Shown: positions 5,580 to 41,869 of the stretch, piece after piece
Layout: every line of letters starts with the position of its first letter
Position numbering within the stretch: the stretch's first letter is position 1
Origin: Candidatus Binatia bacterium
GTDB lineage: Bacteria > Desulfobacterota > Binatia > Bin18
Length of the DNA: 64,000 nucleotides
Assembly: GCA_965231765.1 (NCBI GenBank)
Contig: OZ246887.1
Location: forward strand, 5,203,823 to 5,267,822
Direction: 5' to 3'
The notes under the pieces: model-generated
Database searches by the model: none
What the model was told of the DNA's origin: nothing
Seen by the model: the letters and a program-made list of their open reading frames with translations, nothing else
Made by a program: the position numbers and the translations under genes

Positions 5580-5709
5580 CTTTTTGATCTGCAACGAAAC
5601 CCTGCCAGGGAAGCAACATCAAAAGAACGGTTCTCCTGATGCTTTGCTTTTTTTCAAAGTGTCGAGCTATGCTGCGAGGCGAATAGACGAGAGGAAAGGA
5701 AATATTGCC

Positions 5710-24116: not shown

Positions 24117-24131
24117 TGAGAACGTTTCCCA

Positions 24132-26660
24132 TTGATGTCCCGCAATGAAAGTGGCCAACTTGAGCCCGGAAGTCTCCTTGCTGGGCGGTACCGCGTTGAG
24201 CGCTTTCTGGCTGGCGGCGGCATGGGTGTGGTCTATATTGGGACCGATCAGCGTCTGGCTGAGCGCCAGTGTGCGATTAAAGAAATTTTTGATCGCTTCA
24301 CCACCCCTGAAGAGCGAGCCCAGGCGATAGAATATTTCCACCGCGAAGCCGACACACTGTCGCAGCTCAACCATCCCGCCATTCCCGCCATTTTTGACCG
24401 TTTTGGTGAGGGCAACTGCCATTACCTAGTCATGGATTTCATTGAGGGCAGGAATCTTGAAGAAGTGTTAGTTGAACAAGAGGGACCCTTGCCTGAGAGC
24501 CGGGTCGTTGAGATTGCTCGTGAGCTGTGCGATGTGCTCAGCTATCTGCACAGTTTTGACCCGCCTGTTATCTACCGCGACATGAAGCCCGGCAATGTGA
24601 TTGTGAAGCCCGACGGCCATGTGGCTTTGATTGACTTCGGTATTGCTCGCATCTTTTCGCCGCAAGGGAAAGCGACGCTGATCGGCACGCCCGGTTTTGC
24701 TCCGCCTGAACAGTACGCTGGGAAAGTTGATCAACGCTCCGATATCTACAGCTTAGCTGCTAGCTTGCATTACATGGTCACCGGGCGAGATCCGGAAAAG
24801 CACCCGCCTTTCTCGTGTCCGCCCGTCCTGTCTGAAAAGCCCGACGTTTCGCCATTTTTAGCCCAAGCCGTAGATAAGGCGCTCGCGTATAAGGTAGGAG
24901 AGCGTCCATTTAGCGCCGAAGAATTCAAGGAAATGTTTCTGTATGGACGTGGTCTGAGCGCGACAGCTCCCTCGTCTAGTGCCAAGGCGGCAACCCAGCC
25001 GCTTGAACCTTTGGAGGAAATTGCGGAGGCTGCTGCAGAAGCTGAAGTATTTGCGCCAGCCCCAAACCTTCGCCGAAAACGACGCTGGACCAGACGTATT
25101 GCGGCTTTGCTCTTTATTGGACTCCTGGCGAGTAGTGCCTATGGGCTGTACACCAATCCAGAAGTCCTGCCCGCAGCGTTTGAAGGGAATGCTATGGAAC
25201 GTGTCGGCGAACAGATTCCCTGGCAGAAAATTGAAGCCTGGCTGCCAGAACCAGGCCAAGTCTGGCTGCGGGAATTTGTGGCAGACTTGCCCTGGGAACG
25301 CGAAAAGCGACTGCGGGCCTTACGCGCAGACCCGGTCGAGTTAGTATCGCTCAAAATCTTCAATACCTCACGGGATGGAACTCCGGTTACGGAGCCCCAA
25401 GAAAAATACAGCGTTGGACAAGTCAAATATCTGACCTGGGAAGTGGTCCTCAAAAACCGTTTAGCAGGCATCGAAGGAATACACTACCAACTGGAAGGCC
25501 GATTTTTTGATCCGGAAGGTGGCTTAGCTGGAAAAAGCAAAGCGGGGCGTTATGTGCGGCCTGAGGAAGAGCAGCTGGAGTTCCGTGGGATTACGCTGTT
25601 AGAAGGACTCAGAGAGCGAGCGAAAGGCGATTACCAGCTTGACGTGTACCTGGGCGATACAAAGCTGGTCGATCAGAAGCTGCTCATTGAGGCCGAACCT
25701 ACACTCGTTGCGAAAAAAGATGCTCCCTCAGCAAAAGAGACCAGAATCGCCACGGCTCCGCCTGTCCTGCCCGGTCCCTCTGCAACGGCGATTGCGGCGG
25801 CAGAGGCCGAGCGCAAGCGACGGGCCGGGGATGCCAAACGCGTGGCCTTAATTCAGGAACGGAGTAAAAAGCCGCTCGAAATTGTGAGAGTCAGATTTAT
25901 CAACACGGCCAAGAATGGCAAACGTCTGTCAGAGCCGAGCAAGAGTTTTGCCGCCTCAAAGATCCGTTTTATGGCCTGGGAAGCTGAGTTCAAGAACCGA
26001 CTCCATAGCTTGACACCTGCCTACCATCGGGTCGAGGCGACCTATTATGCCCCGAATGGCCAACCCTTGGGCACAGTTCAGGATGGCAAAGAGGTGAAGG
26101 TCAACAGCAAACGGACAACCTTCACCGGCCGGATTGGGAATGCCAGCGGCGGGGCATTTATACCAGGAAAGTATCGGGTTGATTTTTATGTGAATGGCTG
26201 GCCGCTGTCGTCCGAAGAGTTTATCGTACAGGACGATCGGAAGGGAATCCAAGTCGTGGACCGTGATGAGCAGCCTTGGAGCGGCCTTGCAGGGGGGGGG
26301 CCAGGAAGACAAGCTTCCACCCCTGAACGTCCCGGTATTGGCCCTGCATTGCGTCACCACACTGGCAGTCTGCTCGGTTTGGTTTCTGGGCGCGAGGTGC
26401 CCCTTGAGATCACCTTCCGTCCTCAGCGCAACGGTTCCTTACGCGGGAGGCTCATCATTCACGAGCCGGGCTATGGGGTTGCACCATTGGAAGGCCAGGT
26501 GCAGGGGAGTCAGATTGAATTTCGGAGTCCACTCGGCCGCGATACCTATTATTTCAAAGGCTGGCAAGAAGGCGACCGCCTGACGGGAACGTACCGAGTC
26601 TCCCCGACGCGCAAGGATGGCCGCTGGTCGGTGCGTATCAGTGAGCGGCCAGCCTCCTGA
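24132..26660 (+). CDS. receptor-type Ser/Thr protein kinase with single TM and duplicated extracytoplasmic domain
   Basis: GGGMGVVYIG...AIKEI...VIYRDMKPGNVIV...DFGIAR...GTPGFAPPE is a Hanks-type kinase. A TM helix (IAALLFIGLLASSAYGLY) lies ~aa 320. Two ~120-aa repeats follow (KIFNTSRDGTPV... and RFINTAKNGKRL...). Confidence 0.85.
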   Translation: MMSRNESGQLEPGSLLAGRYRVERFLAGGGMGVVYIGTDQRLAERQCAIKEIFDRFTTPEERAQAIEYFHREADTLSQLNHPAIPAIFDRFGEGNCHYLVMDFIEGRNLEEVLVEQEGPLPESRVVEIARELCDVLSYLHSFDPPVIYRDMKPGNVIVKPDGHVALIDFGIARIFSPQGKATLIGTPGFAPPEQYAGKVDQRSDIYSLAASLHYMVTGRDPEKHPPFSCPPVLSEKPDVSPFLAQAVDKALAYKVGERPFSAEEFKEMFLYGRGLSATAPSSSAKAATQPLEPLEEIAEAAAEAEVFAPAPNLRRKRRWTRRIAALLFIGLLASSAYGLYTNPEVLPAAFEGNAMERVGEQIPWQKIEAWLPEPGQVWLREFVADLPWEREKRLRALRADPVELVSLKIFNTSRDGTPVTEPQEKYSVGQVKYLTWEVVLKNRLAGIEGIHYQLEGRFFDPEGGLAGKSKAGRYVRPEEEQLEFRGITLLEGLRERAKGDYQLDVYLGDTKLVDQKLLIEAEPTLVAKKDAPSAKETRIATAPPVLPGPSATAIAAAEAERKRRAGDAKRVALIQERSKKPLEIVRVRFINTAKNGKRLSEPSKSFAASKIRFMAWEAEFKNRLHSLTPAYHRVEATYYAPNGQPLGTVQDGKEVKVNSKRTTFTGRIGNASGGAFIPGKYRVDFYVNGWPLSSEEFIVQDDRKGIQVVDRDEQPWSGLAGGGPGRQASTPERPGIGPALRHHTGSLLGLVSGREVPLEITFRPQRNGSLRGRLIIHEPGYGVAPLEGQVQGSQIEFRSPLGRDTYYFKGWQEGDRLTGTYRVSPTRKDGRWSVRISERPAS

Positions 26661-26686
26661 CATGAAATTTTTGAGCTGACAACTGA

Positions 26687-27559
26687 GTGACTATGGAACT
26701 CTCACGCGAGCGACTCATTTTGTATACTGGGGCAGGATTTCTGGGTGGGCTGGCCGGTTGGGCAGCCGCAGACCCATTGGCAAGTCTCGGCAATGTCTAC
26801 GTTCGGGCTCTTGCCCTGGGAGCTGTCATCGGGGTGTTTATTGGTGCGTTTATTGCCTCTATTGAGGGGCTCAGTCGCGGCCACAAAAACCAGATCATGC
26901 AGGGTCTGCAACTCGGTGGGCTAGCTGGTTTGATTGGTGGTGGGACTGGGCTGTTGATGGGCGAACTGGTGTTTGGCCTATTCGGAGGACTGGGCGGCCG
27001 GATTATTGGCTGGGGCATATTTGGTTTGATTGCCGGACTGGGCGTTGGCTGGGTTGGCCGTTCGGTTGCCCGGATGCGGAATGGCATGATTGGTGGAGCA
27101 ATCGGCGGAGCGACTGGTGGAGCACTGTACCAGATTGTGACAGGCTTATTACCTCAGACCGCAGGGCGTGGCCTTGCGCTTGCGCTGCTCGGGGCGATGA
27201 TTGGTTTGTGGATTGGCCTGGTCGGAGAAATCCTCAAGCGAGGCTGGTTTATGGTCATTCGTTCCCAGAGCCGGAATGCCAGAGAAGGCAAAGAATATCC
27301 ACTGGTGAAGGCCAAAACCACGATCGGTCGGGCTGAGGAGAGTGATGTCGGGCTGTTCGGGGATCGCTCAATCTCGGATATGCACGCCGTTGTTGAGCGT
27401 CAGAAAGGGAAATTCCTGCTGGCTCGTGGGCAAGGCATAGTCAAGGTCAATCAGTCGTCAGTGACCCAGCCGGTCCAGCTCAAGAATGGAGACCGAGTTG
27501 AGGTCGGGGGAACACTCCTCCTGTTTCGTGATCGCGCGGCTGTCCCTGAAGAGGCATAA
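26687..27559 (+). CDS. polytopic glycine-zipper membrane protein with C-terminal FHA domain
   Basis: Four or five Gly-rich TM segments (GxxxG repeats). The C-terminal FHA reads TIGRAEESDVGLFGDRSISDMHAVV...NGDRVEVGGTLLLF. Confidence 0.7.
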   Translation: MTMELSRERLILYTGAGFLGGLAGWAAADPLASLGNVYVRALALGAVIGVFIGAFIASIEGLSRGHKNQIMQGLQLGGLAGLIGGGTGLLMGELVFGLFGGLGGRIIGWGIFGLIAGLGVGWVGRSVARMRNGMIGGAIGGATGGALYQIVTGLLPQTAGRGLALALLGAMIGLWIGLVGEILKRGWFMVIRSQSRNAREGKEYPLVKAKTTIGRAEESDVGLFGDRSISDMHAVVERQKGKFLLARGQGIVKVNQSSVTQPVQLKNGDRVEVGGTLLLFRDRAAVPEEA

Positions 27560-27605
27560 GAAGCATACGGGACCGAGACGTCAACACACAGAAAAGTGAA
27601 GCTGT

Positions 27606-29168
27606 ATGGGAAAGCATAACTATTTTTATCAATATTGCATTGCCAGTCTCTCGTTTGTCGCGTGCGTGGCCGTCCAGACGTTGGCCTGGGCGGTAGACAC
27701 TGCGGTGGTGTCCCTGACCAATCCACAGCTGGAGACTTTTTCAAATGGCGGTGCAGTTGGCTTGTATTTTAGTGTGACCGACACCCGCGGACAGCCCGTC
27801 GGACAGCTCAGCCTAGACCAGGTGCAAATTCTCGAAGACGGCCAGATAGCAAAAGTCATTGATTTCCGAGGTGAAGAACAGGGACGACCGGTCGATATCG
27901 TGGTTGTCTTTGATATCACCGAGAGTATGGGACCCTTTATCGACGGCATGAAAGAGGCGACAAATGCCTTTGCCGATGGGCTATCGAAAGCCAACCGCGA
28001 TTATCGTTTGGGCCTGGTGACCTTTGAGGATTATGTCACTCGTGATGAGAAGGTGTTTACCCGGAGCGCGACAGAATTCAAAAGCTGGATTGGAGCCTTG
28101 CAGGCAGTTGGCGGCGGGGACATTCCAGAGAACTCGCTCGACGCGTTGATGATCGCCAGCCGTTTTCCTTTTCGGCCAGATGCCCAGGCCGTCGTCATCC
28201 TCATCACCGATGCGCCCAATCATTCTAAAGGGGATGGCTCGGAGAAGAATAATCCGTATGGACATGAGATTAGCCAGGTTTCCGCAGGCGAAGTGGTAGA
28301 GGAACTGAAACGGGCGAATCTGAGCGTGTTTGCAATCACCCCGCCTCCGTTTGTGGCACCCGACCTGCACAGAATGGCCAAAGAAACCGGAGGCAAGCAC
28401 TACAATATTGTGAGTGAAGGCCGCCGTTTTCCTGAGCTGATCGGCAAAATTGGCCGCTCGCTGGCATCGCAGTATTTCCTGACGTATGAGAGCCCACGGC
28501 CGGTCGAAGATGGGACCAGACGGGAAGTCGTACTCAAAATCAGCCATCCAAACGGTGCCGGTGAGGTACGCAGTAAGTACCAGCTGCGCGGAATTGGCGG
28601 CGGTGCCCGAGCTGTCGTGTCGAGCTCTGTTGCTGGCGTTGCTCCAGCTGAAAATATGCTCACCTACAGCTGGTGGAATATGCTTGTGCCGCTCTTGTCC
28701 GGAGCGGGACTCCTCCTGTTGGCGCGGGTGCGGCTGAGTGAACTACCGGCTGATGTCATGAGACGTCTCAAAACAGCTTCGAGCGCAGTCAGTGCTGCTG
28801 CCGGTACAGCCGCCAGCGCGGCTGCCGGCACCGTGGCTGCCGTTAAACCAGATAAACCTGCCGCCTATGCCCGCTTAATCCGTCAAACGCCACTTGACGA
28901 GGTACCGCGCGAGATTGCCTTAACCCGCGAGGAGTTTGTGATTGGGCGTGGTGAAGAGTGTGATATCGTCATTCCCCACACCTCAATTTCGCGTGAGCAT
29001 GCGCGTTTAAAAAAGCTCAAACCTGGCTTTGTGTTGTTTGACCTGAAGAGCAGAAACGGAACCTTTGTGAATGGCCGGAAAGTGGTTGAGAACCTGCTCA
29101 AAGAAGGCATGACGGTCAAGATTGGCGATATTGAGTTTGTCTTTTATGGGGCGAACCCATCGGCCTAA
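27606..29168 (+). CDS. signal peptide / vWA domain / TM / cytoplasmic FHA domain protein
   Basis: Signal peptide. vWA MIDAS VVFDITESM. TM helix WWNMLVPLLSGAGLLLLARV. C-terminal FHA FVIGRGEECDIVIPHTSISREHARL...NGTFVNG. Confidence 0.75.
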   Translation: MGKHNYFYQYCIASLSFVACVAVQTLAWAVDTAVVSLTNPQLETFSNGGAVGLYFSVTDTRGQPVGQLSLDQVQILEDGQIAKVIDFRGEEQGRPVDIVVVFDITESMGPFIDGMKEATNAFADGLSKANRDYRLGLVTFEDYVTRDEKVFTRSATEFKSWIGALQAVGGGDIPENSLDALMIASRFPFRPDAQAVVILITDAPNHSKGDGSEKNNPYGHEISQVSAGEVVEELKRANLSVFAITPPPFVAPDLHRMAKETGGKHYNIVSEGRRFPELIGKIGRSLASQYFLTYESPRPVEDGTRREVVLKISHPNGAGEVRSKYQLRGIGGGARAVVSSSVAGVAPAENMLTYSWWNMLVPLLSGAGLLLLARVRLSELPADVMRRLKTASSAVSAAAGTAASAAAGTVAAVKPDKPAAYARLIRQTPLDEVPREIALTREEFVIGRGEECDIVIPHTSISREHARLKKLKPGFVLFDLKSRNGTFVNGRKVVENLLKEGMTVKIGDIEFVFYGANPSA

Positions 29169-29200
29169 AAGGACACAATGAGCCCCCTTGGCGTCTTTTT

Positions 29201-31276
29201 TTACTGGTACAGCTCTTCACTCTGAACGCCATTATCTGGCACACGAATCTTGGGATATAATGACGGTATACCGTTGCGGCCGAGGAGCAGAAAATCGACC
29301 GGTACAAAAGGCATTGGGACTTCCATTCCGACAAAGGCGCTGCGTTGATCTTTACCAAAGGCCAAACGTGTGCCCAGCACTTCTTTGGGCAGCGTCCCCC
29401 GAACATCAATGCTTGTCCCAGACGTACTTCCGGTCAGATAGGGTAGGGCCCGCCACCCTGCGGAAGTGTGTTTTTCCTGGCTGCTCTTGAGCGTAATATC
29501 GGCCTCTTCTGCCCCGAGAGCCAAACGGGCGAGTTCACGATCGCCATCTTGGCTGGCTCGTTCAAAACCTTTCTCCCGGAAACGCCGCCAAAATTGCTTC
29601 CAGGCGTTTGTTGGCACGCCAAAGACCCTGATACGTGGACCATCATCGGTCTGGATCAGGAGAGAAATCTCTTGATCTGCCAGGATGGTAATCCCGCCCT
29701 CGGCCAGCTCAACATTGTCCCAGTCCCCGTCGAGCAATTCGGTTTTGAGGCTCAAGCCCCGAGGGCCGATCAGGTCGGGATTTTCTTTGAGAAAGGCTTT
29801 GCTGAGTTGGATGCCCTGCGCTTCCCAGCGACTTAAGGCCAGGAGTTGTGGGGCTGCTTCTTGAGCCGCATCGGTATTTGGATAGCGCTCAACCAAGGTC
29901 CGCAGGGCTGTGATTTTCTCCGAGCGATGGGGCGATTGTTTTGCCTGTTCGAGCAAACCTTCGGCCGCCTGTTCTTCGAGCTCTGGGATTTTGTCTTCCT
30001 GTCCAGCGAGTTTATAGTAGTTGATAGCTTGATCGATTTTGCCTTCGCGCTGATACGATTTGGCTAACAGGGGATATACTTCGGGCGTACGTTTTTCGGG
30101 TGGCGTTTTGTGCAGATAGGTCTTGGCTTCCGTAATCACCTCTTCGTGTGATACCGGGTTACTCGTCATCACTTGCCATAATTTACCGCCGAGCTGTACC
30201 GCAGACAGGGCACCAAAGGTTGCGGCCCCGACCAAGCCTTCAGTCGCCACTTGGACTCCAGCCACCACAAAATTATCTTTGACAAACGAGCTGCCAGGCA
30301 TGACATATTTGAAGGTCTCGACTTGATGGTCCCACTCTGCCTGTTTGACTCGCTCGTAGGGGTCCTCCGGTTGTTGTTCTCGGAGCGGTTGGAGCTGCTG
30401 CAAACGGGCTTCGACTTGACGGATACCGGCGTGCGCGTCAGCCGATTCTTCGTCTATCATCAACGCCAGCTGATAGTGAAAATTTGCTCTCCAATAGTCC
30501 TGCTGTGCAAAGGCGGCTTTGGCCTGGGCAAGTTCATCTTTGAGGAGGGCGTTTGTGCGTCGAACTTCGAGTGCCTGGGCTTTTTCCCGCACCTGTGCGG
30601 CACGTTGATCCTGTGGAGCACGTCGCAGAAATTCTTGATACAGCACGAGTGCCTTCCGTTCGCGCGGGGTGGGGGAATCGTCAGCATTGCGCAAAGACGA
30701 GATCACGCCTTGGGCGGAATACGGACTCGGGCTGCGTGGGGTGCCTAAAAACAGACTGCCGACGTCAAATGTTGACAGCACCCAGTTAAAAACGCGGGCG
30801 ACACGTCCGCGTTTTTCCTCTGCGAGCAGTGTATCGGCTCGGACAAGGAGTTCATCCGGCCCAATGTCGAGATCCGCAGCAGTCGGCTGGTCGTGGTTCG
30901 GCTGGCTGTTTTGGGATTCTTGCGGAGCGGCAAGTGCGTGCACATAGGCGGTTAAGCCAGTTGGTTTCTCGCCCTGAAGAATGAGTTGGGCATCATACTC
31001 AGACAGCTCACGAGCATGGGCTTTGACGGCCTCTGGATCTTGCAAATAGGCATCAACAATGGCATTGGCGACTTGTTTGCCGATTGCATCCGGAAAATAA
31101 CGGTCAGCTGGGATGGGTGCTATAAACGGATTATAGCGGGGGAATACATCCGTCAGTTTGGAGAGCAGTGGGTCGGAAAATTCCTGGCCAAACTCTGGGT
31201 CATAGTCCTGAGCGTGGACTGGAGGCAGCAGCAGGACACACAAAAGAATGCCGATAAGGTATTGTGCTCGTTGCAT
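29201..31276 (-). CDS. hypothetical secreted protein with TPR-like helical region
   Basis: 690-aa ORF with an N-terminal signal peptide (MQRAQYLIGILLCVLLLPPVHAQ). No catalytic motif is recognised. The start is taken at the Met before the signal peptide. Confidence 0.5.
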   Translation of the reverse strand: MQRAQYLIGILLCVLLLPPVHAQDYDPEFGQEFSDPLLSKLTDVFPRYNPFIAPIPADRYFPDAIGKQVANAIVDAYLQDPEAVKAHARELSEYDAQLILQGEKPTGLTAYVHALAAPQESQNSQPNHDQPTAADLDIGPDELLVRADTLLAEEKRGRVARVFNWVLSTFDVGSLFLGTPRSPSPYSAQGVISSLRNADDSPTPRERKALVLYQEFLRRAPQDQRAAQVREKAQALEVRRTNALLKDELAQAKAAFAQQDYWRANFHYQLALMIDEESADAHAGIRQVEARLQQLQPLREQQPEDPYERVKQAEWDHQVETFKYVMPGSSFVKDNFVVAGVQVATEGLVGAATFGALSAVQLGGKLWQVMTSNPVSHEEVITEAKTYLHKTPPEKRTPEVYPLLAKSYQREGKIDQAINYYKLAGQEDKIPELEEQAAEGLLEQAKQSPHRSEKITALRTLVERYPNTDAAQEAAPQLLALSRWEAQGIQLSKAFLKENPDLIGPRGLSLKTELLDGDWDNVELAEGGITILADQEISLLIQTDDGPRIRVFGVPTNAWKQFWRRFREKGFERASQDGDRELARLALGAEEADITLKSSQEKHTSAGWRALPYLTGSTSGTSIDVRGTLPKEVLGTRLAFGKDQRSAFVGMEVPMPFVPVDFLLLGRNGIPSLYPKIRVPDNGVQSEELYQ

Positions 31277-31335
31277 AGAGTCAGATCCCCGAGCGTGCAT
31301 GAAACGTAAAAAGACCTGAAAACTTCATCAAAGCT

Positions 31336-32349
31336 TCATCTTCCCAAGCGTCCGATTTTGGCGATATAGGCTTCCAGCGCTTGGAGTTTACCTTTGGCTT
31401 CGAGTTTTTCGATCACGCCGTCTTCTTGGGTGACTTGGGCGTACTGATTCAGGGCGGCTTGGCCTAATTCTTCAAAAACAGTTGGGTTAAAGCTGAGGCT
31501 TTCCGGGTCGTTTTGAGACACATATTCCTCGGCCAAACTGCTATAAAAATCGCCCAATTCTATCCGGTATTGGTAGCGATTTTTGCTCTCTGTATGGGTG
31601 TCGAGCAGTTGCCGGTAAGCCACGATGACGCTCTCATTGCCGTCTTGGATTTGATACCGATTGAGGGTCAGGAAGGTCACTTTGGCCATGTCTAAGCGTT
31701 CGGCTTCTTCAAGGGCGAGCGATTCGTACGGCGTGCCTGCCAATTCTTGGCTGAGGGCACGCCAGGCAACGGCTTGATCGTCTAGGGCTTTGAGGTATTC
31801 GACTGGGGTGCTGGCTGAGAACTGACGCTCGGTCAGCTCTTTGAATTTGGTCAGCGCGGCAACTGATTTTGTGGCTTCGTCCTTTAGACGGTGGTTGGTT
31901 TGGCTGACACGTTCATACTCCTCAAAGGCTTCTTGGTAAGCGTGCAGTCCCTCATAGGCGCGTCCACGCGTATATGCGATCAGGACAGGATACGCGCCTG
32001 GGTGTTTGGACTGATAGTCTTGGAGTCGTTTCAGGGTCGCTTTATGCGCATTTGCGCCAGTCACGTCCTCGGGCAAAGGAAAGCGGTAGGTATCCTTGGT
32101 CGCAACGCGCTGAAATTCGGCGGTGACTTTGAGCAGATCTTCTTCGGTTTCATACTGCGGGTTGCTGTCTGCCGCAGTGTTTTTGGACAGACCTGGGATC
32201 ATGTCGCGTATCTGTGAAGTGGTTGAGGAAACGCGTGGGCCAGTTGCGGTTGGTTGTGAACGAAAAAGGGAACACGCTGATAGCAGACAGGCGGAGAGGA
32301 GAAGAACGATGAGAGGCAGGAACGAAAAGGGCGTGTTCTGCATCTGCAT
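31336..32349 (-). CDS. hypothetical lipoprotein (TPR-like)
   Basis: Lipobox-like LLSAC|S after a hydrophobic N-terminus. Helical repeat-like body. The start is ambiguous between Met codons at 32367, 32349 and 32343. Confidence 0.5.
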   Translation of the reverse strand: MQMQNTPFSFLPLIVLLLSACLLSACSLFRSQPTATGPRVSSTTSQIRDMIPGLSKNTAADSNPQYETEEDLLKVTAEFQRVATKDTYRFPLPEDVTGANAHKATLKRLQDYQSKHPGAYPVLIAYTRGRAYEGLHAYQEAFEEYERVSQTNHRLKDEATKSVAALTKFKELTERQFSASTPVEYLKALDDQAVAWRALSQELAGTPYESLALEEAERLDMAKVTFLTLNRYQIQDGNESVIVAYRQLLDTHTESKNRYQYRIELGDFYSSLAEEYVSQNDPESLSFNPTVFEELGQAALNQYAQVTQEDGVIEKLEAKGKLQALEAYIAKIGRLGR

Positions 32350-32506
32350 AATCCCACGATATGACATAGCTGATCGGGCTCAGGCGTGCGTAATAGTACC
32401 CACCTTAATGTGAGCGAGACAGGGTGTCAAACCGGGTTTTTGGGGTTTCTTGGCTTGGGCTTGCCAGCAGTCATTACTTCCAGATAATATCCGACACGAT
32501 GCTAGT

Positions 32507-32591
32507 GCCGGGGTGGTGGAATTGGCAGACACACAGGACTTAAAATCCTGTGAGCTTTTTGCTCGTACGGGTTCAAGTCCCGTCCCCGGCA
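32507..32591 (+). tRNA. tRNA-Leu (anticodon UAA), type II with long variable arm
   Basis: Acceptor stem GCCGGGG/CCCCGGC with discriminator A. Anticodon stem CAGGA/TCCTG with loop CUUAAAA. Long variable arm GAGCTTTTTGCTC. T-arm GGGTTCAAGTCCC. Length 85 nt. Confidence 0.8.
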
Positions 32592-32986
32592 TAAGAAAAT
32601 TAACTACTTATGCCCCCTCTCAGCTGCGGAGGCGCGCGAAATTCCGGTCAAGGACACGATCCGAGTGTCGGCTGCACCCGGGACAGCGGAACGGCGCTGG
32701 GCGACCGCGACTTGGACACCACATGCTGCACGCTGAGGCAAACTCTGTGTGGCTCCGGGCCCGGACCGGGTTAGCGGACAGGCTCAAGCGCCAGGCCGAG
32801 GACTTTGCGTTTCATCTGCTGGTTGACTTGGAGGAAGCCCGGGCCGAGGGCCTGACCGACGTGGCTGTGATCGCGGAGCGCTATGGCGTCCCGCGTGAGA
32901 TGGTGCTGCTGGGGCGGGTGGCGTGAGAGAGAACACTCATACCCCACTTCACGCAGGAGCACGGATTACATAACGAGGAACCCTTA

Positions 32987-33850
32987 ATGGTAGACCGTAA
33001 AGCCGATACCGAGCCTCCGCAATTCACGAGGGCTGGCATCGAAAGAGGCATCACCAAGTTAAACCGTCGCATTAAAGACCTGAAAGGTCTCGATCCGAGC
33101 GAAGTCCATCAGTACGCTCCCTCAGTTCAAGTCGTCGAGTCGAACATCCGCGCAGCTATTCATGATGTATTTGGCAAGAATTCCCTGGAGTCTAAGCTGA
33201 AAGGGCTTTCTCTAATACTGTCGCCCGACGGATACAACAATAAGAAAAGTGACGCTGAGCGCCGAGAGGAGTCCTCCAAAATACTCGATCGCGCAGTCAC
33301 GATACTGGAGGGACATATCTTGCGTCTTAAAGAGAAACGCGAAGACCTGGAAGCAGATCAGGGGACTGAGCAGTCGGGTACACTTTCTTCGGACAAGTCA
33401 TCTACGAACAGCCGCCGAGTCTTCGTGGTCCACGGGCGGGACGTGGCAGCGAAGGAGGAAGTTCGCAGGCTTCTAACTCAGTTGAAGCTTGAGCCCGTGA
33501 TCCTTGGTGAACAGCCAGACCAGGGTCAGACGGTCATTGAGAAGTTCGAGGGGAACGCGGACGTGGGCTTCGCGGTGGTCCTTTTGACGCCCGACGACAA
33601 GGGTGGACTGGCTGACTCATCTAATGAGCCTCAGCGACGAGCGCGCCAGAATGTGATCTTCGAACTCGGTTTCTTCGTTGGCAAGCTCGGCAGAAAGAAG
33701 GTCTGCACCCTGTACAAGGGCAATGTCGAGATCATGAGCGATTATCAGGGTGTCATATATGTTCCCATGGATGATGAGGGCTGGCGATTGAATCTCGCAC
33801 AGGAGATTAAGAGCGCTGGCATCAATGTGGATCTGAATCACCTATGCTAG
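32987..33850 (+). CDS. coiled-coil + TIR-like (PF10137-type, predicted nucleotide-binding TIR-like) domain protein; candidate defence effector
   Basis: The C-terminal ~140 aa ([64 protein letters not shown]...[28 protein letters not shown]) match, from memory, the conserved TIR-like family motif set ([35 protein letters not shown]). The N-terminal ~150 aa are charged, helical and coiled-coil-like. Confidence 0.6.
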
Positions 33851-33934
33851 CGCGGTGTTTCATGTCGGCAAGGATGATCGGGTGCTCGGCCTTGTGGCTG
33901 GGCCGCTGACGGTGGGTAAGGAGAACGCATCACC

Positions 33935-34684
33935 ATGAGATCTCGGCTTTGGCTTTCCATTTGTGTCGCCTTAGTGTGGGCCTGGGTGGCGCCACAGCCA
34001 GCAGCGGCGCAAGATGCTGAGGTCGCGGACTGCCTCAAGACCGATCTGGCGCCCGCAGCGAAGGTCGCCGCGTGCCGAGCCGCCGCGGAAAACGGAGACG
34101 CGGATGCGCAGCTCAGGCTCGGTGTCATGTACGACAACGGCCAGGGCGTGGCGCAGGACTATGCGGAGGCGATGACGTGGTTCCGCCGGGCCGCTGCGCA
34201 GGGAAATGCAGGTGCGCAGGTCGCTCTCGGCGTCATGTACGCCGGCGGTCAGGGCGTGCCACAGGACTATGCGGAGGCGATGACATGGTATCGCCGGGCG
34301 GCTGCGCAGGGAAATGCAGGTGCGCAGGTCAATCTTGGCGTCATGTACAGTAAGGGCCGGGGCGTGGCGCAGGACCATGCGGAGGCGCTGGTGTGGTATC
34401 GCCGGGCGGCTGCGCAGGACTATGGGCTTGCGCAGTACAATCTCGGCGTCATGTACAGTAAGGGCCGGGGCGTGGCGCAGGATTATACGCTGGCCCATAT
34501 GTGGTTCAATCTCGCCAGCGCAAGTGGCTACAAGGATGCGTCTGAGGCCCGCAATGAGATGGCAAAGCGCATGACCCTGGCCCAGATCGCTGAAGCCCAA
34601 CGGTTGGCGCGGGAGTGGACGCAGGCATATACGGTAGGGGGGCAAGTAGTGCCAGCCGGGCCAGGCACGGCTGAACGATTTTAG
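33935..34684 (+). CDS. Sel1-like repeat (SLR) protein, secreted
   Basis: Signal peptide. Five tandem Sel1 repeats (LGVMYxxGxGVxQDYAEAMTWYRRAAAQGNAGAQ). Confidence 0.8.
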   Translation: MRSRLWLSICVALVWAWVAPQPAAAQDAEVADCLKTDLAPAAKVAACRAAAENGDADAQLRLGVMYDNGQGVAQDYAEAMTWFRRAAAQGNAGAQVALGVMYAGGQGVPQDYAEAMTWYRRAAAQGNAGAQVNLGVMYSKGRGVAQDHAEALVWYRRAAAQDYGLAQYNLGVMYSKGRGVAQDYTLAHMWFNLASASGYKDASEARNEMAKRMTLAQIAEAQRLAREWTQAYTVGGQVVPAGPGTAERF

Positions 34685-34895
34685 GGAAAAGGACAGACCG
34701 GCCGACGATTCTTCAGTGCGGAGCTTGGGGGTGGGGCCGAACGGCTGCCAAGTCGCCTTCAAAAAGCGCAGCCGTCATTGCACCTCAATAATCACAAAAT
34801 TCTGGCTTGCCTCTTGCCACTCGACCGTCACTGTTGTGTCCGGCTCGGGGAAGTCAGGCAGATTGTACACGCCACTCGCACCTGTCAGACGAACT
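34671..34895. repeat. direct repeat copy A (~97% identical to 41870-42095)
   Basis: A ~225-bp block is almost identical to copy B, with about six mismatches. Weaker homology extends a further ~100 bp upstream into the Sel1 gene 3' end. Confidence 0.7.
34780..34895 (-). pseudogene. remnant 3' end of an LRR/PPC surface-protein gene (paralog of 41981..44773)
   Basis: The reverse strand encodes ...LTGASGVYNLPDFPEPDTTVTVEWQEASQNFVIIEVQ*, identical to the last 37 aa of the 930-aa LRR protein. It has no upstream coding continuation. Confidence 0.6.
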
Positions 34896-34899
34896 GCTG

Positions 34900-37824
34900 C
34901 ATGAGCTTTCGCAGCACAGTCTTCAGATTCAGAGCCGCTATTTCCCCGAGGACAGCGAGTTATGGGTTGACCGCCAACTTGACCGGAACCTGGAAGAGGC
35001 TGTCGGCCGGGACGTCGTTTTTGTCGTTGCCGAGTCGGGTCTCGGCAAAAGCATAGCGTGTCACAAACGCCTGACGGCGCATGTTGAGATGGGAGGGTTT
35101 GGGCTGGTCATTCCGCATCAAATCATTGCTGACTCCCTGTCACTTGAGCAAGCGGTCGGTACGACGCTACGACAGCTCCATCCTTCTCTTGCCTCCGACG
35201 CGGGGAGCGAGGCGCGCGCGCTGGCGTCGGAACGCAAACCATTGTTGATGGTCGTGGAGGATATCAACAAATTTGGACAGCCAATCTCGCTCATCGAACG
35301 GCTGGCGAGCTGGAGCGCGCAGCGGGCAGAACGCAATCAGGTGGCCAGCTGGCAGATTCTTTGTCCGGTTTGGCCTCGGATACTCACAGCGCTTGGTGAT
35401 CAAGCCCGCAAGAAGATCAATGAGTTAGTGCTCACGGCATCTTCCTTCACACCAGAGGAAGGCGCTGCTGCCGTAAACCGCCGTCGCCACCAGGCAGGGA
35501 TTCCAATAACGCAGCTCGACGCAGAAGCGGTGGCGTCGGCTCTGGGTTACGATCCCTTTCTTATCGCCCTACAAGACCTTACGGCAACGCCAGACCCCAA
35601 CCATGTCATTCAAGCCTTTATCAAAGGCAGTCTCGAACGGCTCGCCGAAAGTCGCGGCGAGTTTACAGCGGGGGAATATCGAGAGGGATTGAGGCATCTC
35701 GCTGCCACAATGCTTGAACGGCGACGCCTTGATCTTTCTATGACTGACGTTGCCGCCTAGTTTGAAGACACACCCAGCACCGTAAACATGCTCCGGCATA
35801 TCGTCCGTTTCGGTGAGATCATTCGCGTTACTGGATCTGCCTCGAACGAGCGCTTGGCATTTCGCCATGACCGCGTTCTTGACTGGCTTCTTGCCGATGC
35901 GGCGGCAGACCTCATGCGCCATGGTGCCATCCCCCAGACCGTGCTGACGGAACCGTATTTTGCAGAAATCATCGGTGCTGCACTGGTCCGTGATGCCATC
36001 CCACTTGCAACGGTTGAACAGGTAAGAGTCACTAATCCCCTCGCGCTGTTCTGCGCAATGTCCGTGTTCGGCGAGCCGTGATCTGCACTGTGCCGTCCTC
36101 AAAGCTGCCGAGGCGTGGCTGGACGACGAGACAACACACACACCACACCACGAGAATCTTCGTTGGGCCGCGCGCCGTGTTCTCTCGGAATGTGATGCGT
36201 CCTATGTCATTTCGCTCGTCAAGCGCTTTCGTGAAGAACGAAACGATCGGTGGGGGCTACGCGCCCGTTTCCGCAATGGAGATTTTGGGGCGGGCCTCGT
36301 ACTTTGCAGTCTGTACCAGCCTGGGTTCGGCGTAGTCGGGCATGTGGAATTAATCGATCATGTTCAGCGGCGCCGAGGCAGAGCGCTTGTTCGCACGCTC
36401 AATGCTTTTCTGCGTCACGATCAACTCCCAGCTGCCGGCAGGTCTGGCGCTCTGAGGCTAGCCGGCTACCTCGCTGACCCGACGCTAGCCAGCGCAATTA
36501 AAACGTCCTGGTTGGCCGATACCGGCCGGGATGAGAGGCTCACGGATTATTTATGGGCTAGCGCGCAATGCGGTGGCGAGGATGCAGCCGGACTGTTGGC
36601 ACCGGTCTGCGATAAGTGGGCCGCGCTGCCCGATAAAGCAGACAGAGAGCATTCAGTCTCCTCCCGTAATAATCTCGCAGCGCATGAAATTCGATGGGCG
36701 TTTCGGGACAGAGTCCCTGAGTCGGCAATCCACTACTTCATCGAACAGGCAAAAACATCTGCATTGCGATGGCCGATCACCTTTATGCTGCACGGTATTG
36801 ATCACCCTGACGCGGTTGAGTTTGTTACTCGAGAACTCGCTGCAACTGAAAACTTTTCGCCGTTCGCGATGAACGCAGAAGATGAATGGAAGCGGCAGCA
36901 AGAAAAAACGGGCCGTGCGATGTCGGACGCTTCACGGAACCGGCTGCGTGAATTATGGACGAACAAACAGAATGGAAAACATCTGAGGAATTGGGCTACT
37001 GGTGGCAGGTAGGGCGGTATATCTGGTCGGATGAGCTGACTGAAAGTCTTGATGAGGCGCTAGGCCGGCGGAGCGACCGGGTGGAACGAGCTTGGGACTT
37101 CAATAATGAGATCTCGGCTGACTGTATTCTATCCGAGCGCCTGGTGGAGCTTCCAACGCCGACCGTGGAAGGATTACTGATCAAGCACTGGGATCATTTG
37201 CGTTTTTCATTTTACTATGTGCAAGCGGCTCTTTACACCGTGACTCCCCGACTCATGGAGATGGTCGCGCAAACGGTTGCCAGATGCCCGAACCCCAAAT
37301 CTATGTTTGAGCTCGCAACCAGGCATTTTGGAATCAGGACTAAAGAGCGAACGGGGATCGTGCGCATTGCGCAGCTTCAAGCCCTGTTGCCTTACCTTGA
37401 TCATCTTAGCGATCTGGATGTCCTAAACCTTTGGGAGACGTGCAACGATCATGGCTGGTTTGAATGGCGCCGTCAGCACCTCGATTCGCGTTTAAGGATT
37501 GGCAGGGCAAAAATATATGAAAATGACAACCGAGCAATGGCAGATCTTGACGACATGTTTCCCAAAGGGCTCTGGACTAATCATTGGGCTGACGAGTTTC
37601 TCAAAACCGGTATCTCCGTTGATCACATGATGGAAGTTGTACAGAACTGGTTGAGCCGACAAACAGACATTAGGGCTCTAACGATGGCAGCAGCCATTGT
37701 CGCCCATGCTGGTCAGCGTCGCCATATAAGTATCTTGTCCAGCCATAATATTGAGGCGACAGATCAGACTGGGCCCATCATTGAAGATACGCTTTTTGCG
37801 CTGAAACGGCGGTCTCCAAATTAG
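34900..37824 (+). pseudogene. frameshift-fragmented large P-loop NTPase (STAND/AAA-like) with helical-repeat C-terminal region
   Basis: Consecutive same-strand ORFs (34807-35760, 35788-36081, 36078-36335, 36344-37012, 36955-37824) run frame 1, then 1, 3, 2, 1 with overlaps. The first carries Walker A VVAESGLGKS and Walker B LLMVVEDINKF. The later pieces are alpha-helical. This is consistent with one ~950-aa gene broken by frameshifts. Confidence 0.4.
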
Positions 37825-38263
37825 GAGCAGCCCCCATGGCAGAAACACCCCTCCCTGAACTTCAGCCGGCTTCCGATAACCCATGGTACAGACTCGCTAC
37901 CGCTGGAGAAGATCACACGGACAACATGCGCCGTTGGAATGGCTACATGCGCCATCTGGTTGGGGAGGAGGAGGCGGCCAATTTGAAGCGGGACGATGGA
38001 AAGAATTGCTTCCCGGCAGATCGGCAGAGGCTTCGAGATCGGTGTTTTCAACGGACGCGGTGTACATTGGCGCGGAATGGACGACGGTGGCACCCAGGAA
38101 CGCGACCTTGTCCAAAGTACCGAGGCTGGGCAAAGCTGCGCGCCTTTGACTATCCCTTATGTCAGCAGTGTCCTTGAAAGCCTCGCGGCCAGCTATGACC
38201 GCGAGGCGAAGAGGGCAGATGACAGAGTGGAAATCAGAAAGAGGCTGGGACGTCGAACAAAAC

Positions 38264-38683
38264 TCATGCTCTTCCCCGACCTTTCAGCCCGTGTGGGGCG
38301 AGGATCGGCACGGAAAACACCAGAGCCAGGGTCAGCAGGTCCTCGTCACCCGTCACCAGGGCATCAGCCTGGCCCACCAGCGCCAGTTCGAGAAAAGGAC
38401 GGTCGAACGGGTCACGACACGCCGGGACGGCCGACGGTTCCGACACGCTGACCGTCTCGCACCAGGGCAGATAGTCGGCCAACAGATCTTCTCGCTCATC
38501 GTCGGTTAGCTGGAACTTGGCGTAGGACAGCACCCGAATCAATTCCGCCGTCGTCTCGCGGCTGGCCAGCGGCACAACGGCTCGCGCCTGCCACGCGTCG
38601 CGCAGCCAAGACACCGTTCCTGACGGGAACAGCAAGGCCGACACCAGGACATTGGTATCGAGCACCAACCGCCGAAAACTCAT
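38264..38683 (-). CDS. vapC: PIN-domain (VapC-type) toxin
   Basis: LVLDTNVLVSALL (first acidic residue), then a conserved ...TGDEDLL... acidic cluster. The start overlaps the antitoxin stop (ATGA). Confidence 0.7.
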   Translation of the reverse strand: MSFRRLVLDTNVLVSALLFPSGTVSWLRDAWQARAVVPLASRETTAELIRVLSYAKFQLTDDEREDLLADYLPWCETVSVSEPSAVPACRDPFDRPFLELALVGQADALVTGDEDLLTLALVFSVPILAPHGLKGRGRA

Positions 38684-38904
38684 TGAGCCTGGCGTGCCCA
38701 CGCCACGGCTTCTGCCACGTCCGTTTCGGACAAGCCCAGCTCGGCCAGTTTCGCCCGCACGGCATTAGCTCGGGTGAGCCGCACAGGGGTCAGCACGAGC
38801 CGCCCATTTTCGTGGGTGACATCGAAGTACTCTGTCCCCTGGAAGGCGGACACCAGCGCTTTCGGCAGGGTGAGTTGGTTCTTGGAAGTCAGTTTGGCAA
38901 GCAT
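38680..38904 (-). CDS. vapB: AbrB/MazE/SpoVT-family antitoxin
   Basis: 74 aa with a swapped-hairpin motif (LTSKNQLTLPKALV). It lies immediately upstream of the PIN gene and overlaps it. Confidence 0.65.
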   Translation of the reverse strand: MLAKLTSKNQLTLPKALVSAFQGTEYFDVTHENGRLVLTPVRLTRANAVRAKLAELGLSETDVAEAVAWARQAQ

Positions 38905-39210
38905 GGAGACATCTTCCTTATTCTGTTGTAAGGAAACAAGGATAAAGAAGATCCTTTCTCAGGGCAAGAGGAGGGACGACCGTCGCCTCACTTGATCCGA
39001 CCGTCGTTTTTGCTGTCTTTTGTCACTGGAGGGATCTCACTCGGCCCAGCCTGGTGGACGAACTGAGGGCGGGAGCAGGGCAGACTTGGTTTCTGCTCTC
39101 TGCGGCCGCTCCCTTAATCATCGGTTCCCTCTTGATGAATAGTATACATATAACTAAACTTTTTCTATCTGTGCCAAGGAGAAGGGAAAGGAGGGGAGGG
39201 GAGGATGCTT

Positions 39211-39590
39211 TGACGCAAATTGTCGCTGAGGGAAAATGGGGAAGGGTCGAGTGGGCGACAGACCGAAACGGGAATATGCCCGCGCGGTCTTATTATTCGG
39301 ACCTTCCTGATAGCGACAAAGCAAAAATCCTCGCTCTTTTCAACTTTTTGCGATTTCTTCAAAACCGGGAGAAACTCAAAAAACTAGGCAGTAAGGCAAA
39401 AGGGAAAGACTCAGAATTGTGGGAATTCAAGAGCTTTCAACATCGTTTTCTCGGTGATTATAGGCCACACAGCCGCTTTATTATCGCGCGTGCGCTTCAG
39501 AAAAAAAGCGATAACTTGCCAACATCTGATATTGCACGAGCCATTCGTATTCTCCCAGAAAACGACCAGCGAGAGGAAGGAATGCCATGA
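39211..39590 (+). CDS. higB: HigB/RelE-superfamily (Gp49-like) toxin
   Basis: ...GKDSELWEFKSFQHRFLGDYRPHSRFIIARALQKK... resembles the Gp49/HigB family. The ORF opens at 39054; the start is placed at TTG 39211 after GGAGGGGAGGGGAGG, and is uncertain. The stop overlaps the downstream HTH gene (ATGA). Confidence 0.5.
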
Positions 39591-39940
39591 ATCGCCCCTC
39601 CACGGACTATGAACTTTTTGAGCAATCCTCAGATCACAACAGACGGCTTCTGCGAGAGGAAGAGTTGATCCTGGAGGTGACAGAAGCGGTCAGCGCGGTG
39701 ATGCAGGAAGAAGGCATCTCTAAAGCCCGGCTCGCAAAGCGCCTGGGGAAAACCAAAGGATTCATTTCCCAGCTCTTGTCGGGCGGACGGAATCTGACCC
39801 TGCGGACGCTCGCTGGCCTTGTTGATGCGTTGGGATATCGGGTCACCATTACGGTTTCCAAGAATCGTGATAGCAGGTCTGTCGGCAGCGAGTCTCCTGA
39901 CCTCAGAGTCATCAATATCGAATCTTGGTCTTCCCCCTAG
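39587..39940 (+). CDS. higA: HTH (XRE/HigA-like) antitoxin with short C-terminal extension
   Basis: HTH reads ISKARLAKRLGKTKGFISQLLSGGRNLTLRTLAGLVDALG, and a ~25-aa tail follows. Its position after the toxin matches a HigBA-type reversed TA arrangement. Confidence 0.6.
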   Translation: MNRPSTDYELFEQSSDHNRRLLREEELILEVTEAVSAVMQEEGISKARLAKRLGKTKGFISQLLSGGRNLTLRTLAGLVDALGYRVTITVSKNRDSRSVGSESPDLRVINIESWSSP

Positions 39941-40017
39941 ACCCAGCCGCCGGTTTGGAGGGAACCCACTGTCAGTATTCCTCTCCAAACCTCAGTTAGT
40001 GACTATGGAGCAGCAGC

Positions 40018-40494
40018 ATGAGCAAGGCAGCTGATGGCCTGAAACGATTGATTGCGGAGGTCGAGATTGAAGGGGTGCGCCTCGTTGAAGCAAACGCGGA
40101 AACGAAGGTGCGGTCGCCGGAAGACACTGGCGCTGTTGATCTCTTGGTCAATCGAACGGCCGGGATTAGCGAGCGTCAAGAAAACGGGATGTTTTTTGTT
40201 GTGGCAACCATCAGGGCTCAACTTGTCTCTGAAGAGGCGAAGGAGGAGCCTCTGGTCTCGATCGAGACGAGTTTTGAACTCCAGTATCGCCTCCCTGAAG
40301 GATTGCGCGTCGATCCTCAAGCTCTGACAACCTTTGCCGAGACGAACGGGATCTATAATGCCTGGCCCTATTGGCGTGAGTTTGTGCAAAGCACGTTGGC
40401 CCGGATGGGACTCCCGCCAGTCGTGCTCCCGTTGTTACGCGCTCGGGAGGTGAAGGAGAAGACAGAAGCCGAGAAGGCAGAGGGGGTGGTATGA
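40018..40494 (+). CDS. SecB-like chaperone (TAC-system-type)
   Basis: 158 aa. Blocks align to E. coli SecB: VEANAET vs FEAPNAP, FFVVATIRAQLVSEE vs YEVVLRVTVTASLGEE, and AWPYWREFVQSTLARMGLPPVVLPLL vs [26 protein letters not shown]. Confidence 0.55.
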   Translation: MSKAADGLKRLIAEVEIEGVRLVEANAETKVRSPEDTGAVDLLVNRTAGISERQENGMFFVVATIRAQLVSEEAKEEPLVSIETSFELQYRLPEGLRVDPQALTTFAETNGIYNAWPYWREFVQSTLARMGLPPVVLPLLRAREVKEKTEAEKAEGVV

Positions 40495-41306: not shown

Positions 41307-41869
41307 GTGCCAGCCTCATGGTTCGCAGACAAGGACTCAAATGCATAACCGACGTGCTGGCCTGGATCAAAGCGCAGGGTGCCAGCTATCAGACCCGGAT
41401 GAACGCCGTGTTCCGGGCCTTCCAGGAAGCCACCAGATAATCGGGGGTCCGGAGATTCTCCTACACTGACGAGGGTAGACCCCTCACAGTCGAGCGAAGA
41501 GCCGGGGCAACAGAGACAAAAAAGGAGGAGGAAATCATACCCAGATGCAACATCTTATTGCGTCGTCTAGGAGACAGGTTTGGGCCGGTCTTCTCGGCTC
41601 GTTCTCCTCTGCTCTTGTCGTTGTTAAAATCCTCGGGTTTGGAAAGCAGGTTACAATAACCGGGAAAGTAGACTCCGTTGACCTGATATCTATTTATCTG
41701 AAGGAATGTGAATTGGTCGATGAGTAGATTTCGCGCAATCCTGCCGGCAGGCCACAGGCAAACGCCTCCCACTTCCAAGCTTGACACTTTGTCCCTTACC
41801 AGACGGAGCGGGTGGCGCGGCCTTATGTGGGCGGAGGAAAATCAGGGACTTACAGAGCCAGTCGAGCCC

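Follow-up and report, generated by a model that had tools for sequence, protein, structure and literature searches.

In the cryo-electron microscopy structure of SfSTING, a Cap12 TIR-STING protein, E84 is the catalytic residue, R78 and N80 are the ligands of the NAD phosphate and ribose, and D110 is supplied by the opposite TIR protomer, completing the active site (PMC9402430). Immune proteins that act singly and are switched on by assembly have also been described: RAZR, also listed as PD-T7-4, combines a zinc finger (ZnF) with a DUF4145 RNase domain and is activated by assembly on a phage ring protein (PMC13017515), and Swarozyc is switched on by assembling around a phage portal-like ring. 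Here we analyzed a gene for a 287-aa protein in a 64,000-nucleotide stretch of DNA from Candidatus Binatia bacterium (contig OZ246887.1; the whole stretch is called the window), whose product consists of an N-terminal helical module, a linker, and a PF10137 TIR domain and belongs to the phage defence candidate (PDC) family PDC-S35. We read this gene as a one-protein defence effector of the abortive-infection type, with a probability of roughly 0.6; that it serves defence in some way we regard as likely.

The assignment to PF10137 and PDC-S35 is nearly certain. In Pfam, residues 144-262 aligned with positions 1-118 of the 119-position PF10137 profile ("CAP12/Pycsar effector protein, TIR domain") and scored 130.5 bits (cut-off, 24.7; E = 4.1e-38). 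In PADLOC, the PDC-S35 model PDLC05005 covered almost the entire protein (E = 4.4e-78, 260.6 bits, residues 21-286 against profile positions 6-262 of 264), four more PDC-S35 models matched its C-terminal half only, and the matches to the CBASS "Effector TIR" and PycTIR models were far weaker. A reading of the DNA made from its letters alone, before any search (the sequence-only reading), had proposed a single-gene defence candidate with a C-terminal TIR-like domain of the Cap12/Pycsar type, and both proposals held, though the family was already catalogued: the window gene joins an unvalidated candidate family, and the kind of system is not new. It matches PDC-S35 over the N-domain and the TIR-like domain alike, has the single-gene layout in common with it, and shows no structural difference from the family, relatives of which are embedded in multi-gene defence operons, the criterion that defines PDCs. 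Other PDC-S35 sub-models have unrelated N-termini, e.g., those of a 299-aa protein of IncF plasmids and a 253-aa protein of Escherichia coli phages.

An AlphaFold2 model of the window protein, built from a 48-sequence alignment, had a mean predicted local distance difference test (pLDDT) score of 84 and displayed helices at residues 15-33 and 45-62, a long helix at residues 89-129, and an alpha/beta domain from residue 144 on, with pLDDT values below 50 at linker residues 130-138. The PF10137 domain adopts the TIR/flavodoxin-like alpha-beta fold. In a Foldseek search of the PDB, the top ten structural matches were all bacterial TIR-STING proteins (9LMQ, 7UN8), followed by SPARTA TIR-APAZ and MyD88; a family profile run against the PDB sequences matched Cap12 (E = 4.9e-10 and 1.5e-7) and PycTIR (E = 2.9e-4) and nothing else. 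Once an offset of 8 residues in chain numbering was allowed for, R220, N222, E226, and D252 aligned with R78, N80, E84, and D110 of SfSTING. R220, Q221, N222, V223, E226, and D252 were invariant in the 48-member family alignment, as were the blocks F146-V-V-H-G150, E185-K-x-E188, and T201-x-D203. This alignment shows that the complete set of SfSTING-type NADase residues, the trans-acting aspartate included, has been kept in the window TIR domain. The check for a catalytic glutamate that the sequence-only reading had suggested thus led to E226, which is conserved together with its partner residues and is the predicted catalytic residue; R220 and N222 are the predicted ligands of the NAD phosphate and ribose, and the substrate is probably NAD+.

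The N-terminal part of the protein had been described from the sequence as helical, without a recognizable domain, and possibly novel. It is indeed helical, and residues ~14-129 matched no Pfam family, but the module is already included in the PADLOC PDLC05005 model, and it is portable across effector classes. A locus of a closely related genome (L089; loci are denoted by L and a number) encodes, at 5536-6687, a 383-aa chimera that joins a DUF4145 HEPN domain and a Cys4 zinc-ribbon-like motif to a window-type N-domain and is 64% identical to window residues 1-136 (E = 2e-52), the similarity ending at the linker. Because this identity exceeds the 40 to 47% by which the N-domains of the window protein's own TIR-bearing relatives resemble it, the domain swap is recent. 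When residues 1-135 were used as the query of an exhaustive phmmer search, 122 cluster representatives of 88 to 1169 aa were returned, among which a Pfam scan detected PF10137 in 24, Hypoth_Ymh (a HEPN family) in 17, TIR_2 in 6, DUF4145 in 5, a DpnII-MboI restriction endonuclease (REase) domain in 3, and TIR in 2, many of the remainder being without C-terminal annotation. A profile search with the N-domain further brought up fusions to SHOCT, as well as many forms that are short or standalone. Taken together, these data show that the first ~130 aa are an autonomous helical bundle, a portable module that also occurs on HEPN (Ymh and DUF4145), TIR_2, and REase effectors.

Divergence within the family is about two times faster in the N-domain than in the TIR domain. 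The mean pairwise identity was 0.38 for the N-domain versus 0.63 for the TIR domain (0.19 for the linker), and in the nearest relatives the values were 0.38 to 0.49 versus 0.74 to 0.82, with only 0.10 to 0.22 in the loop formed by residues 64-88. In its published description, AbiJ-NTD1 (Anantharaman et al. 2013, PMC3710099) is, like the window N-domain, a mostly alpha-helical region (~140 aa) placed N-terminal to interchangeable conflict effectors, and the partners published for it (DUF4145, Ymh, REase, and a flavodoxin-fold deoxyribosyltransferase-like domain), compared by that description, overlap strikingly with those of the N-domain (PMC3710099). Fusions to Abi_C, the HEPN domain of AbiJ, were absent from the 122 plus 66 N-domain proteins. 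Kinship of the N-domain with the AbiJ-like protein encoded in the window was rejected (hhalign probability, 0.6%), as was kinship with the N-terminus of the IncF plasmid PDC-S35 protein (0.1%).

The window protein is in the same domain clade as Cap12 and PycTIR, yet it is neither of them. The NCBIfam equivalogs for Cap12, NF050171 and NF050172, gave it 42.6 and 30.4 bits, respectively, against a cut-off of 450. Unlike the Cap12 TIR-STING proteins (SfSTING, PDB 7UN8; 9LMQ), it has neither a STING nor a SAVED cyclic-nucleotide receptor; its accessory domain is instead the N-terminal helical bundle, so that the domain order is reversed, and no gene for a cGAS/DncV-like nucleotidyltransferase (CD-NTase) accompanies it. 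With PycTIR of Pycsar (PDB 8JSJ), it has in common the PF10137 TIR domain and the motif N-V-x-[LF]-E-[LF]-G, but the likeness extends over ~60 to 120 residues, the PADLOC PycTIR model covers the TIR part only (34.7 bits, E = 3e-9), and the window protein has no cyclic nucleoside monophosphate-binding domain and no PycC cyclase nearby. The gene was thus correctly described from the sequence as standalone: no cyclase, CD-NTase, or ThsA-like protein is encoded in the 27.6- to 51.8-kb region of the window, and no partner is conserved over the 71 homologous loci surveyed. The likeness to Swarozyc and to RAZR/PD-T7-4 is functional and by analogy only; in each case, one protein combines an accessory domain with an effector that needs oligomerization and acts by abortive infection. 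Both are from different families. Swarozyc is a DUF4062 TIR-like NADase, and Pfam gave no DUF4062 match to the window protein. As for RAZR, a ZnF-DUF4145 effector bearing the window-type N-domain exists (the L089 chimera), but the PADLOC PD-T7-4 model does not match this chimera.

Activation through N-domain-mediated assembly is a tentative proposal that we hold at somewhat less than even odds, by analogy with these systems and mainly because the trans-acting aspartate is conserved. In the resting state, the TIR domains would be apart or inactive. A phage-derived trigger would be recognized by the N-terminal module, or would reorganize it, and the module would then drive the formation of a dimer or a higher-order assembly; TIR protomers would thereby be brought together, D252 of one completing the E226 site of its neighbor, and NAD+ would be hydrolyzed, leading to arrest or death of the infected cell. 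A role of the N-domain in controlling assembly is suggested because every effector class paired with it (TIR, HEPN, and type II REase) needs dimerization or oligomerization, while its role as a sensor is a conjecture.

Several points weigh against the gene being an abortive-infection effector that works in this way. PDC families are guilt-by-embedding predictions, only nine HEC candidates having been tested in the study that defined them, and in the literature searched we found no mention of PDC-S35 and no experimental report of anti-phage activity. The arrangement of the two domains in the AlphaFold2 model is uncertain (predicted template modelling score, 0.57), and the structural matches of the N-domain are generic helical bundles only. 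A promoter scan recognized none between the tRNA-Leu gene and the TIR-like open reading frame (ORF) (32461-32986), and the signal in the ratio of nonsynonymous to synonymous substitutions (dN/dS), described below, comes from 12 substitutions between two metagenome-assembled genomes (MAGs).

The result for the window is mostly confirmatory, in that a member of a catalogued, unvalidated family was correctly spotted. What is added here is the portability and fast evolution of the N-module, the association with a degenerate M78 gene and a repeated junction, and a set of accessible orthologues. If PDC-S35 is active, its members would be among the smallest TIR-based immune proteins, each a Cap12-type NADase without second-messenger signalling and with a 130-residue helical module in its place. 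The ligand of the N-module, once known, would explain the activation of a whole set of one-protein abortive-infection systems.

Homologues of the window protein numbered 4469 at E <= 1e-3, about 100 of them full-length (~287 aa), and the best match among species-representative genomes was in a Binatia MAG (55% identity). Their phyletic range is patchy (Binatia, Dehalococcoidia, Spirochaetia, Pseudomonas, Burkholderia, Bradyrhizobium, Acidobacteriota, Planctomycetota, and one Altiarchaeales archaeon), and they occur on plasmids, in phages, and within restriction-modification (R-M) operons; homologues confined to conserved core-genome contexts, which would have spoken against a defence gene, were thus not what we found. 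We surveyed five genes on either side of the homologue at 71 non-redundant loci, clustering the neighbors by BLAST. No universal partner gene emerged, the largest neighbor cluster being present at 10 of the 71 loci. This cluster belongs to type III R-M operons, in which Mod (10 loci), Res (8 loci), and an MNT nucleotidyltransferase (5 loci) were recorded and the TIR-like gene is embedded between Mod and Res. Tyrosine recombinase genes were among the neighbors at 8 loci, at three of which they overlap its stop codon by 4 bp, and AAA_15/21 (PD-T4-4/AriA-like) ATPase genes were neighbors at 3 loci. PDC-S39 and PDC-S66/ThsB-like genes adjoin homologues in L089 and L004. The defence context also includes the AbiJ-like, PIN, and HigB genes of the window island and, for an IncF plasmid relative, the neighboring pifA/pifC genes. 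A conserved upstream partner was rejected, the genes located 5' of the closest homologues (L001 and L004) being unrelated to each other.

Full-length orthologues of the same PDLC05005 subtype, 39 to 40% identical to the window protein, are encoded on a 12.4-kb plasmid of Burkholderia pseudomallei (WP_038727749.1) and a 20-kb plasmid of Pseudomonas avellanae (WP_103377637.1). About 1,000 plasmid records from Klebsiella, Escherichia, and Salmonella carry the 299-aa PDC-S35 protein WP_000963206.1, whose N-terminus is unrelated; on the example examined (H31), a conjugative IncF plasmid, the gene is convergent with the classical locus of T7 exclusion, pifA/pifC. A 253-aa PDC-S35 protein (sub-model PDLC05003, E = 1e-108) is encoded by three E. 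coli myophages. These data show that horizontal transfer has carried the family patchily into R-M operons, integrase-linked cassettes, plasmids, and phages, and the relatives on B. pseudomallei, Pseudomonas, and enterobacterial plasmids and in E. coli phages make it experimentally accessible and clinically widespread. The 4-bp overlap with a downstream tyrosine recombinase gene was seen in L091 (the B. pseudomallei plasmid NZ_CP073739, 6001-7841), L092 (the P. avellanae plasmid NZ_CP026567, 5956-7796), L027, L029, and L043, suggesting that PDC-S35 and the recombinase form a two-gene mobile or plasmid-resolution unit in a recurrent subclade. At other loci, we noted an overlapping 96-aa ORF preceding the PDC-S35 gene on the IncF example, an E. 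coli plasmid (L093, NZ_AP026789, 4271-5450), a PDC-S35 gene flanked by a DNA polymerase gene and small ORFs in Escherichia phage vB_EcoM-689R2 (L094, 3270-4031), and three tandem PF10137 genes (354-815, 909-1436, and 1471-2295) in a Poribacteria MAG (L062:354-2295).

In the window, the ORF at 32987-33850 starts with ATG, and its translation carries the sequence blocks quoted in the sequence-only reading, which had called it the first gene after tRNA-Leu(UAA). Length and coordinates were right, but the decayed remnant of an ImmA/IrrE-like (Peptidase_M78) gene lies in between. This remnant was detected in an ORF overlapping the tRNA, which matched positions 50-118 of the 123-position Pfam Peptidase_M78 profile (E = 3e-5) through its C-terminal codons, and it is 72% identical to the M78 protein of L089 (tblastn); its 5' part has been lost or frameshifted. 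Aligned at the DNA level with the M78 gene of L090, the remnants of the window and of the sister genome (L088) displayed a 40-bp loss at the 5' end, a 5-bp deletion through the HAIGH metal-site codons, and a 40-bp insertion at the 3' end. In L089, an M78-like gene of 193 aa (4955-5536) overlaps the start of the gene for the N-domain-ZnF-DUF4145 chimera, the two being translationally coupled, and in L090, a 5'-truncated M78 gene of 116 aa overlaps the start of a gene encoding an N-domain and a TIR domain. The L090 pair also lies directly after a tRNA-Leu gene, but of the CAA isoacceptor, the sister genome having UAA as the window does. The TIR-like gene thus formerly travelled behind a degenerate ImmA/IrrE-like gene and is now alone in the window, the M78 gene being a pseudogene. 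In the intact relatives, HAIGH replaces the HExxH motif of the family, so that the catalytic glutamate is absent; judged by this motif, these M78-like proteins are probably not active peptidases. They also matched the PADLOC capP model weakly (E = 1e-5 to 1e-6).

The block GGATTACATAACGAGGAA, for which 0.02 matches would be expected by chance in the window, corresponds in the relatives to the last M78 codons, overlapping the start of the N-domain gene. We also observed that the ~100 bp at the 3' end of the M78 gene, which include this block, recur as orphan fragments directly upstream of unrelated genes in L001 (6112-6183 and 7945-7995), L004 (7307-7387), and L089 (5415-5533, 7927-7998, and 12531-12599); the same M78 3' sequence lies at 7651-8001 in L090 and at 32711-32980 in the window. 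The cargo found 3' of these fragments comprises an 80-aa transmembrane protein, a 178-aa protein, Sel1, and the N-domain-TIR and N-domain-DUF4145 proteins. This suggests that cargo is exchanged by recombination at the M78 3' junction; the fragments resemble the orphan-cassette junctions of Rhs and contact-dependent inhibition loci and may serve such exchange.

A wider hypothesis joins these observations, and we consider it possible but doubtful. The N-domain would be an unannotated portable module for trigger recognition and assembly, with neither a Pfam family nor a relative of solved structure, exchanged by recombination at the disordered linker among at least five classes of toxic effectors (PF10137 TIR, TIR_2, Ymh-HEPN, DUF4145-HEPN, and DpnII/MboI REase), and the genes concerned would in this lineage be interchangeable cargo, carried along behind an ImmA/IrrE-like gene whose product is catalytically dead. 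The final ~100 bp of that gene would be the repeated recombination junction, and the cassettes would land beside tRNA-Leu genes. If true, the specificity of many effectors would be set by one sensor fold, and the M78 3' junction would be a new cassette-exchange device for defence genes.

The overlapping gene pairs bear on another explanation, namely, that the protein is an addiction or stabilization toxin of mobile elements and not a phage sensor: a latent toxin, it would punish the loss of its plasmid or island and would be held in check by a co-transcribed partner, the M78-like protein in this lineage or the tyrosine recombinase in others. In the closest relatives (L089 and L090), the M78-like gene overlaps the start codon, on the small B. 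pseudomallei and P. avellanae plasmids and in L027, L029, and L043 there is a 4-bp overlap with the recombinase gene, and the window island is rich in toxin-antitoxin (TA) pairs. However, neither partner is conserved across the family, and the TIR-like ORF of the window and of the sister genome is intact even though the M78 gene has become a pseudogene in both. The M78-like proteins, moreover, have no catalytic glutamate (HAIGH), and embedding in R-M operons suits defence better. Addiction and abortive infection are mutually compatible, and we consider addiction in place of defence to be rather unlikely, though it survives best among the alternatives.

It is also conceivable that the domain is an N-glycosidase of the NDT/MilB/DNPH1 kind, which would act on nucleotides or nucleosides other than NAD+ and deplete or modify the nucleotide pool in defence or metabolism. 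Among solved structures, however, the profiles picked Cap12 and PycTIR only, and the equivalents of the NAD-phosphate residues R78 and N80 of SfSTING are conserved along with the trans-acting aspartate. The patchy occurrence of the family, on islands and plasmids, contradicts a housekeeping role, and we judge this explanation unlikely.

Comparison with the sister genome allowed us to weigh whether the gene is a decaying passenger, functionless since the loss of its M78 partner and the island integrase. The two genomes are 98% identical over 22982-34888, which includes the tRNA, the M78 remnant, the TIR-like gene, and the Sel1 gene. In the TIR-like gene itself, we counted 12 nonsynonymous differences, no synonymous ones, and a single codon indel, while three flanking genes, pooled as the dN/dS control (the FHA-290 gene was left out because its comparison was mis-registered), gave 25.5 synonymous and 27.5 nonsynonymous differences and a ratio of nonsynonymous to synonymous proportions (pN/pS) of 0.34. 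Tests of the 12:0 excess gave a Fisher one-sided P of 0.0011, a Poisson P for 0 synonymous differences of 0.0016, and a binomial P against neutrality of 0.041, and none of the 12 changes hit an invariant family residue. Although the counts are small and both sequences come from MAGs, the pattern fits diversifying selection, and we read it, like the fast divergence of the N-domain, as a sign of an arms race. That all 12 differences are nonsynonymous could also mean relaxed constraint, and the upstream M78 gene is a pseudogene, the window yielded no integrase or attachment repeat, and no promoter was detected. Against decay, 0 synonymous differences out of 12 lies below even the neutral expectation, the changes leave the invariant positions untouched, and both genomes keep an intact ORF with all invariant family residues and a strong Shine-Dalgarno sequence; a functionless passenger is thus, in our estimate, more unlikely still.

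The least likely explanation is that the protein is a signal generator of the Thoeris ThsB type, making a cyclic ADP-ribose-like or other nucleotide messenger for an effector encoded elsewhere, since Pfam gave no match to PF08937 or PF13676 at E <= 1 (of the two profiles that the sequence-only reading had put forward, PF10137 and PF13676, only the former matched), the best sequence and structure relatives (Cap12 TIR-STING, TIR-SAVED, and PycTIR) deplete NAD, a ThsA-, SLOG-, or Macro-type effector is not conserved nearby, and a systematic Thoeris-like screen left out standalone TIRs as likely effectors.

The gene read here as a one-protein defence effector lies, as had been proposed, in a variable, tRNA-adjacent island with TA genes and also Abi genes, the features of which are collected in Table 1.

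Table 1. Features of the TIR-like gene and its surroundings, in order of position in the window
Feature	Position	Strand	Remarks
tRNA-Leu(UAA)	32506..32592	+	ARAGORN; insertion landmark of the island
Decayed ImmA/IrrE-like (Peptidase_M78) remnant	32640..32926	+	In frame over the C-terminal ~71 codons only (32711-32926)
Conserved leader/ribosome-binding-site block GGATTACATAACGAGGAA	32963..32980	+	Exact match in window, L088, L089 (twice), L090, and L001-3
CDS, 287-aa PDC-S35 (PDLC05005 subtype) protein	32987..33850	+	N-terminal helical module, linker, PF10137 TIR domain
N-terminal helical-bundle module, aa 14-129	33026..33373	+	Portable, fast-evolving; proposed trigger-sensing and/or assembly domain
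Ser/Thr/Gln-rich low-complexity linker, aa 130-143	33374..33415	+	Predicted disordered; boundary where domain swapping occurred
PF10137 (Cap12/Pycsar-type) TIR domain, aa 144-287	33416..33847	+	Predicted NAD+ glycohydrolase effector
Active-site motif R220-Q-N222-V-I-F-E226	33644..33664	+	E226 predicted catalytic Glu; alignment to SfSTING
D252 codon	33740..33742	+	Equivalent of SfSTING D110; alignment and family invariance
Sel1-repeat protein	33935-34684		Downstream of TIR-like gene
Four collinear ORFs, apparently one disrupted ~1000-aa gene	34807-37824		Weak AAA_22 match; one in-frame stop, two frame changes
PIN_3/MazE-like pair	38264-38904	-	
Gp49(HigB)-like/HTH_3 pair	39252-39940		
PD-T4-9_C-like and AbiJ-like genes	40018-41306		
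930-aa leucine-rich-repeat protein and 445-aa pentapeptide-repeat protein	within 41984-49348	-	High-G+C stretch, 0.62-0.68

ARAGORN found no other tRNA in the window than tRNA-Leu(UAA). The only promoter found upstream of the TIR-like gene by the scan was a sigma-70-like sequence at 32461-32490, the tRNA's own; an intrinsic terminator was likewise not detected between the tRNA and the TIR-like ORF (32461-32986), and transcription of the gene by read-through from the tRNA promoter is conceivable. A Shine-Dalgarno sequence, GAGGA, sits 7 to 8 nt 5' of the ATG. With up to 3 mismatches allowed, the tRNA 3' end did not recur elsewhere in the window, and no integrase was present among the window ORFs scanned. 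The G+C content rises from ~0.54 to 0.60-0.68 between ~33 and 49.5 kb, and from this profile and synteny only, the far border of the island was inferred to lie at ~49.5 kb.

The Sel1 gene adjoins the TIR-like gene in the window and in the sister genome and is nearby in L089. As a partner it was rejected: its product has a signal-peptide-like N-terminus, read by eye from the translation, and the gene is absent elsewhere. The L089 island contains, besides the DUF4145 chimera, a PDC-S35 TIR gene followed by PDC-S39. In the sister genome, window positions 34889-41853 are missing, forming an indel block of ~7 kb that holds the disrupted ~1000-aa gene, the PIN_3/MazE-like and HigB(Gp49)/HTH_3 pairs, and the PD-T4-9_C-like and AbiJ-like genes. 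The region at 41984-49348 is 83 to 93% identical between the two genomes and has thus diverged much faster than the 98% identical upstream flank.

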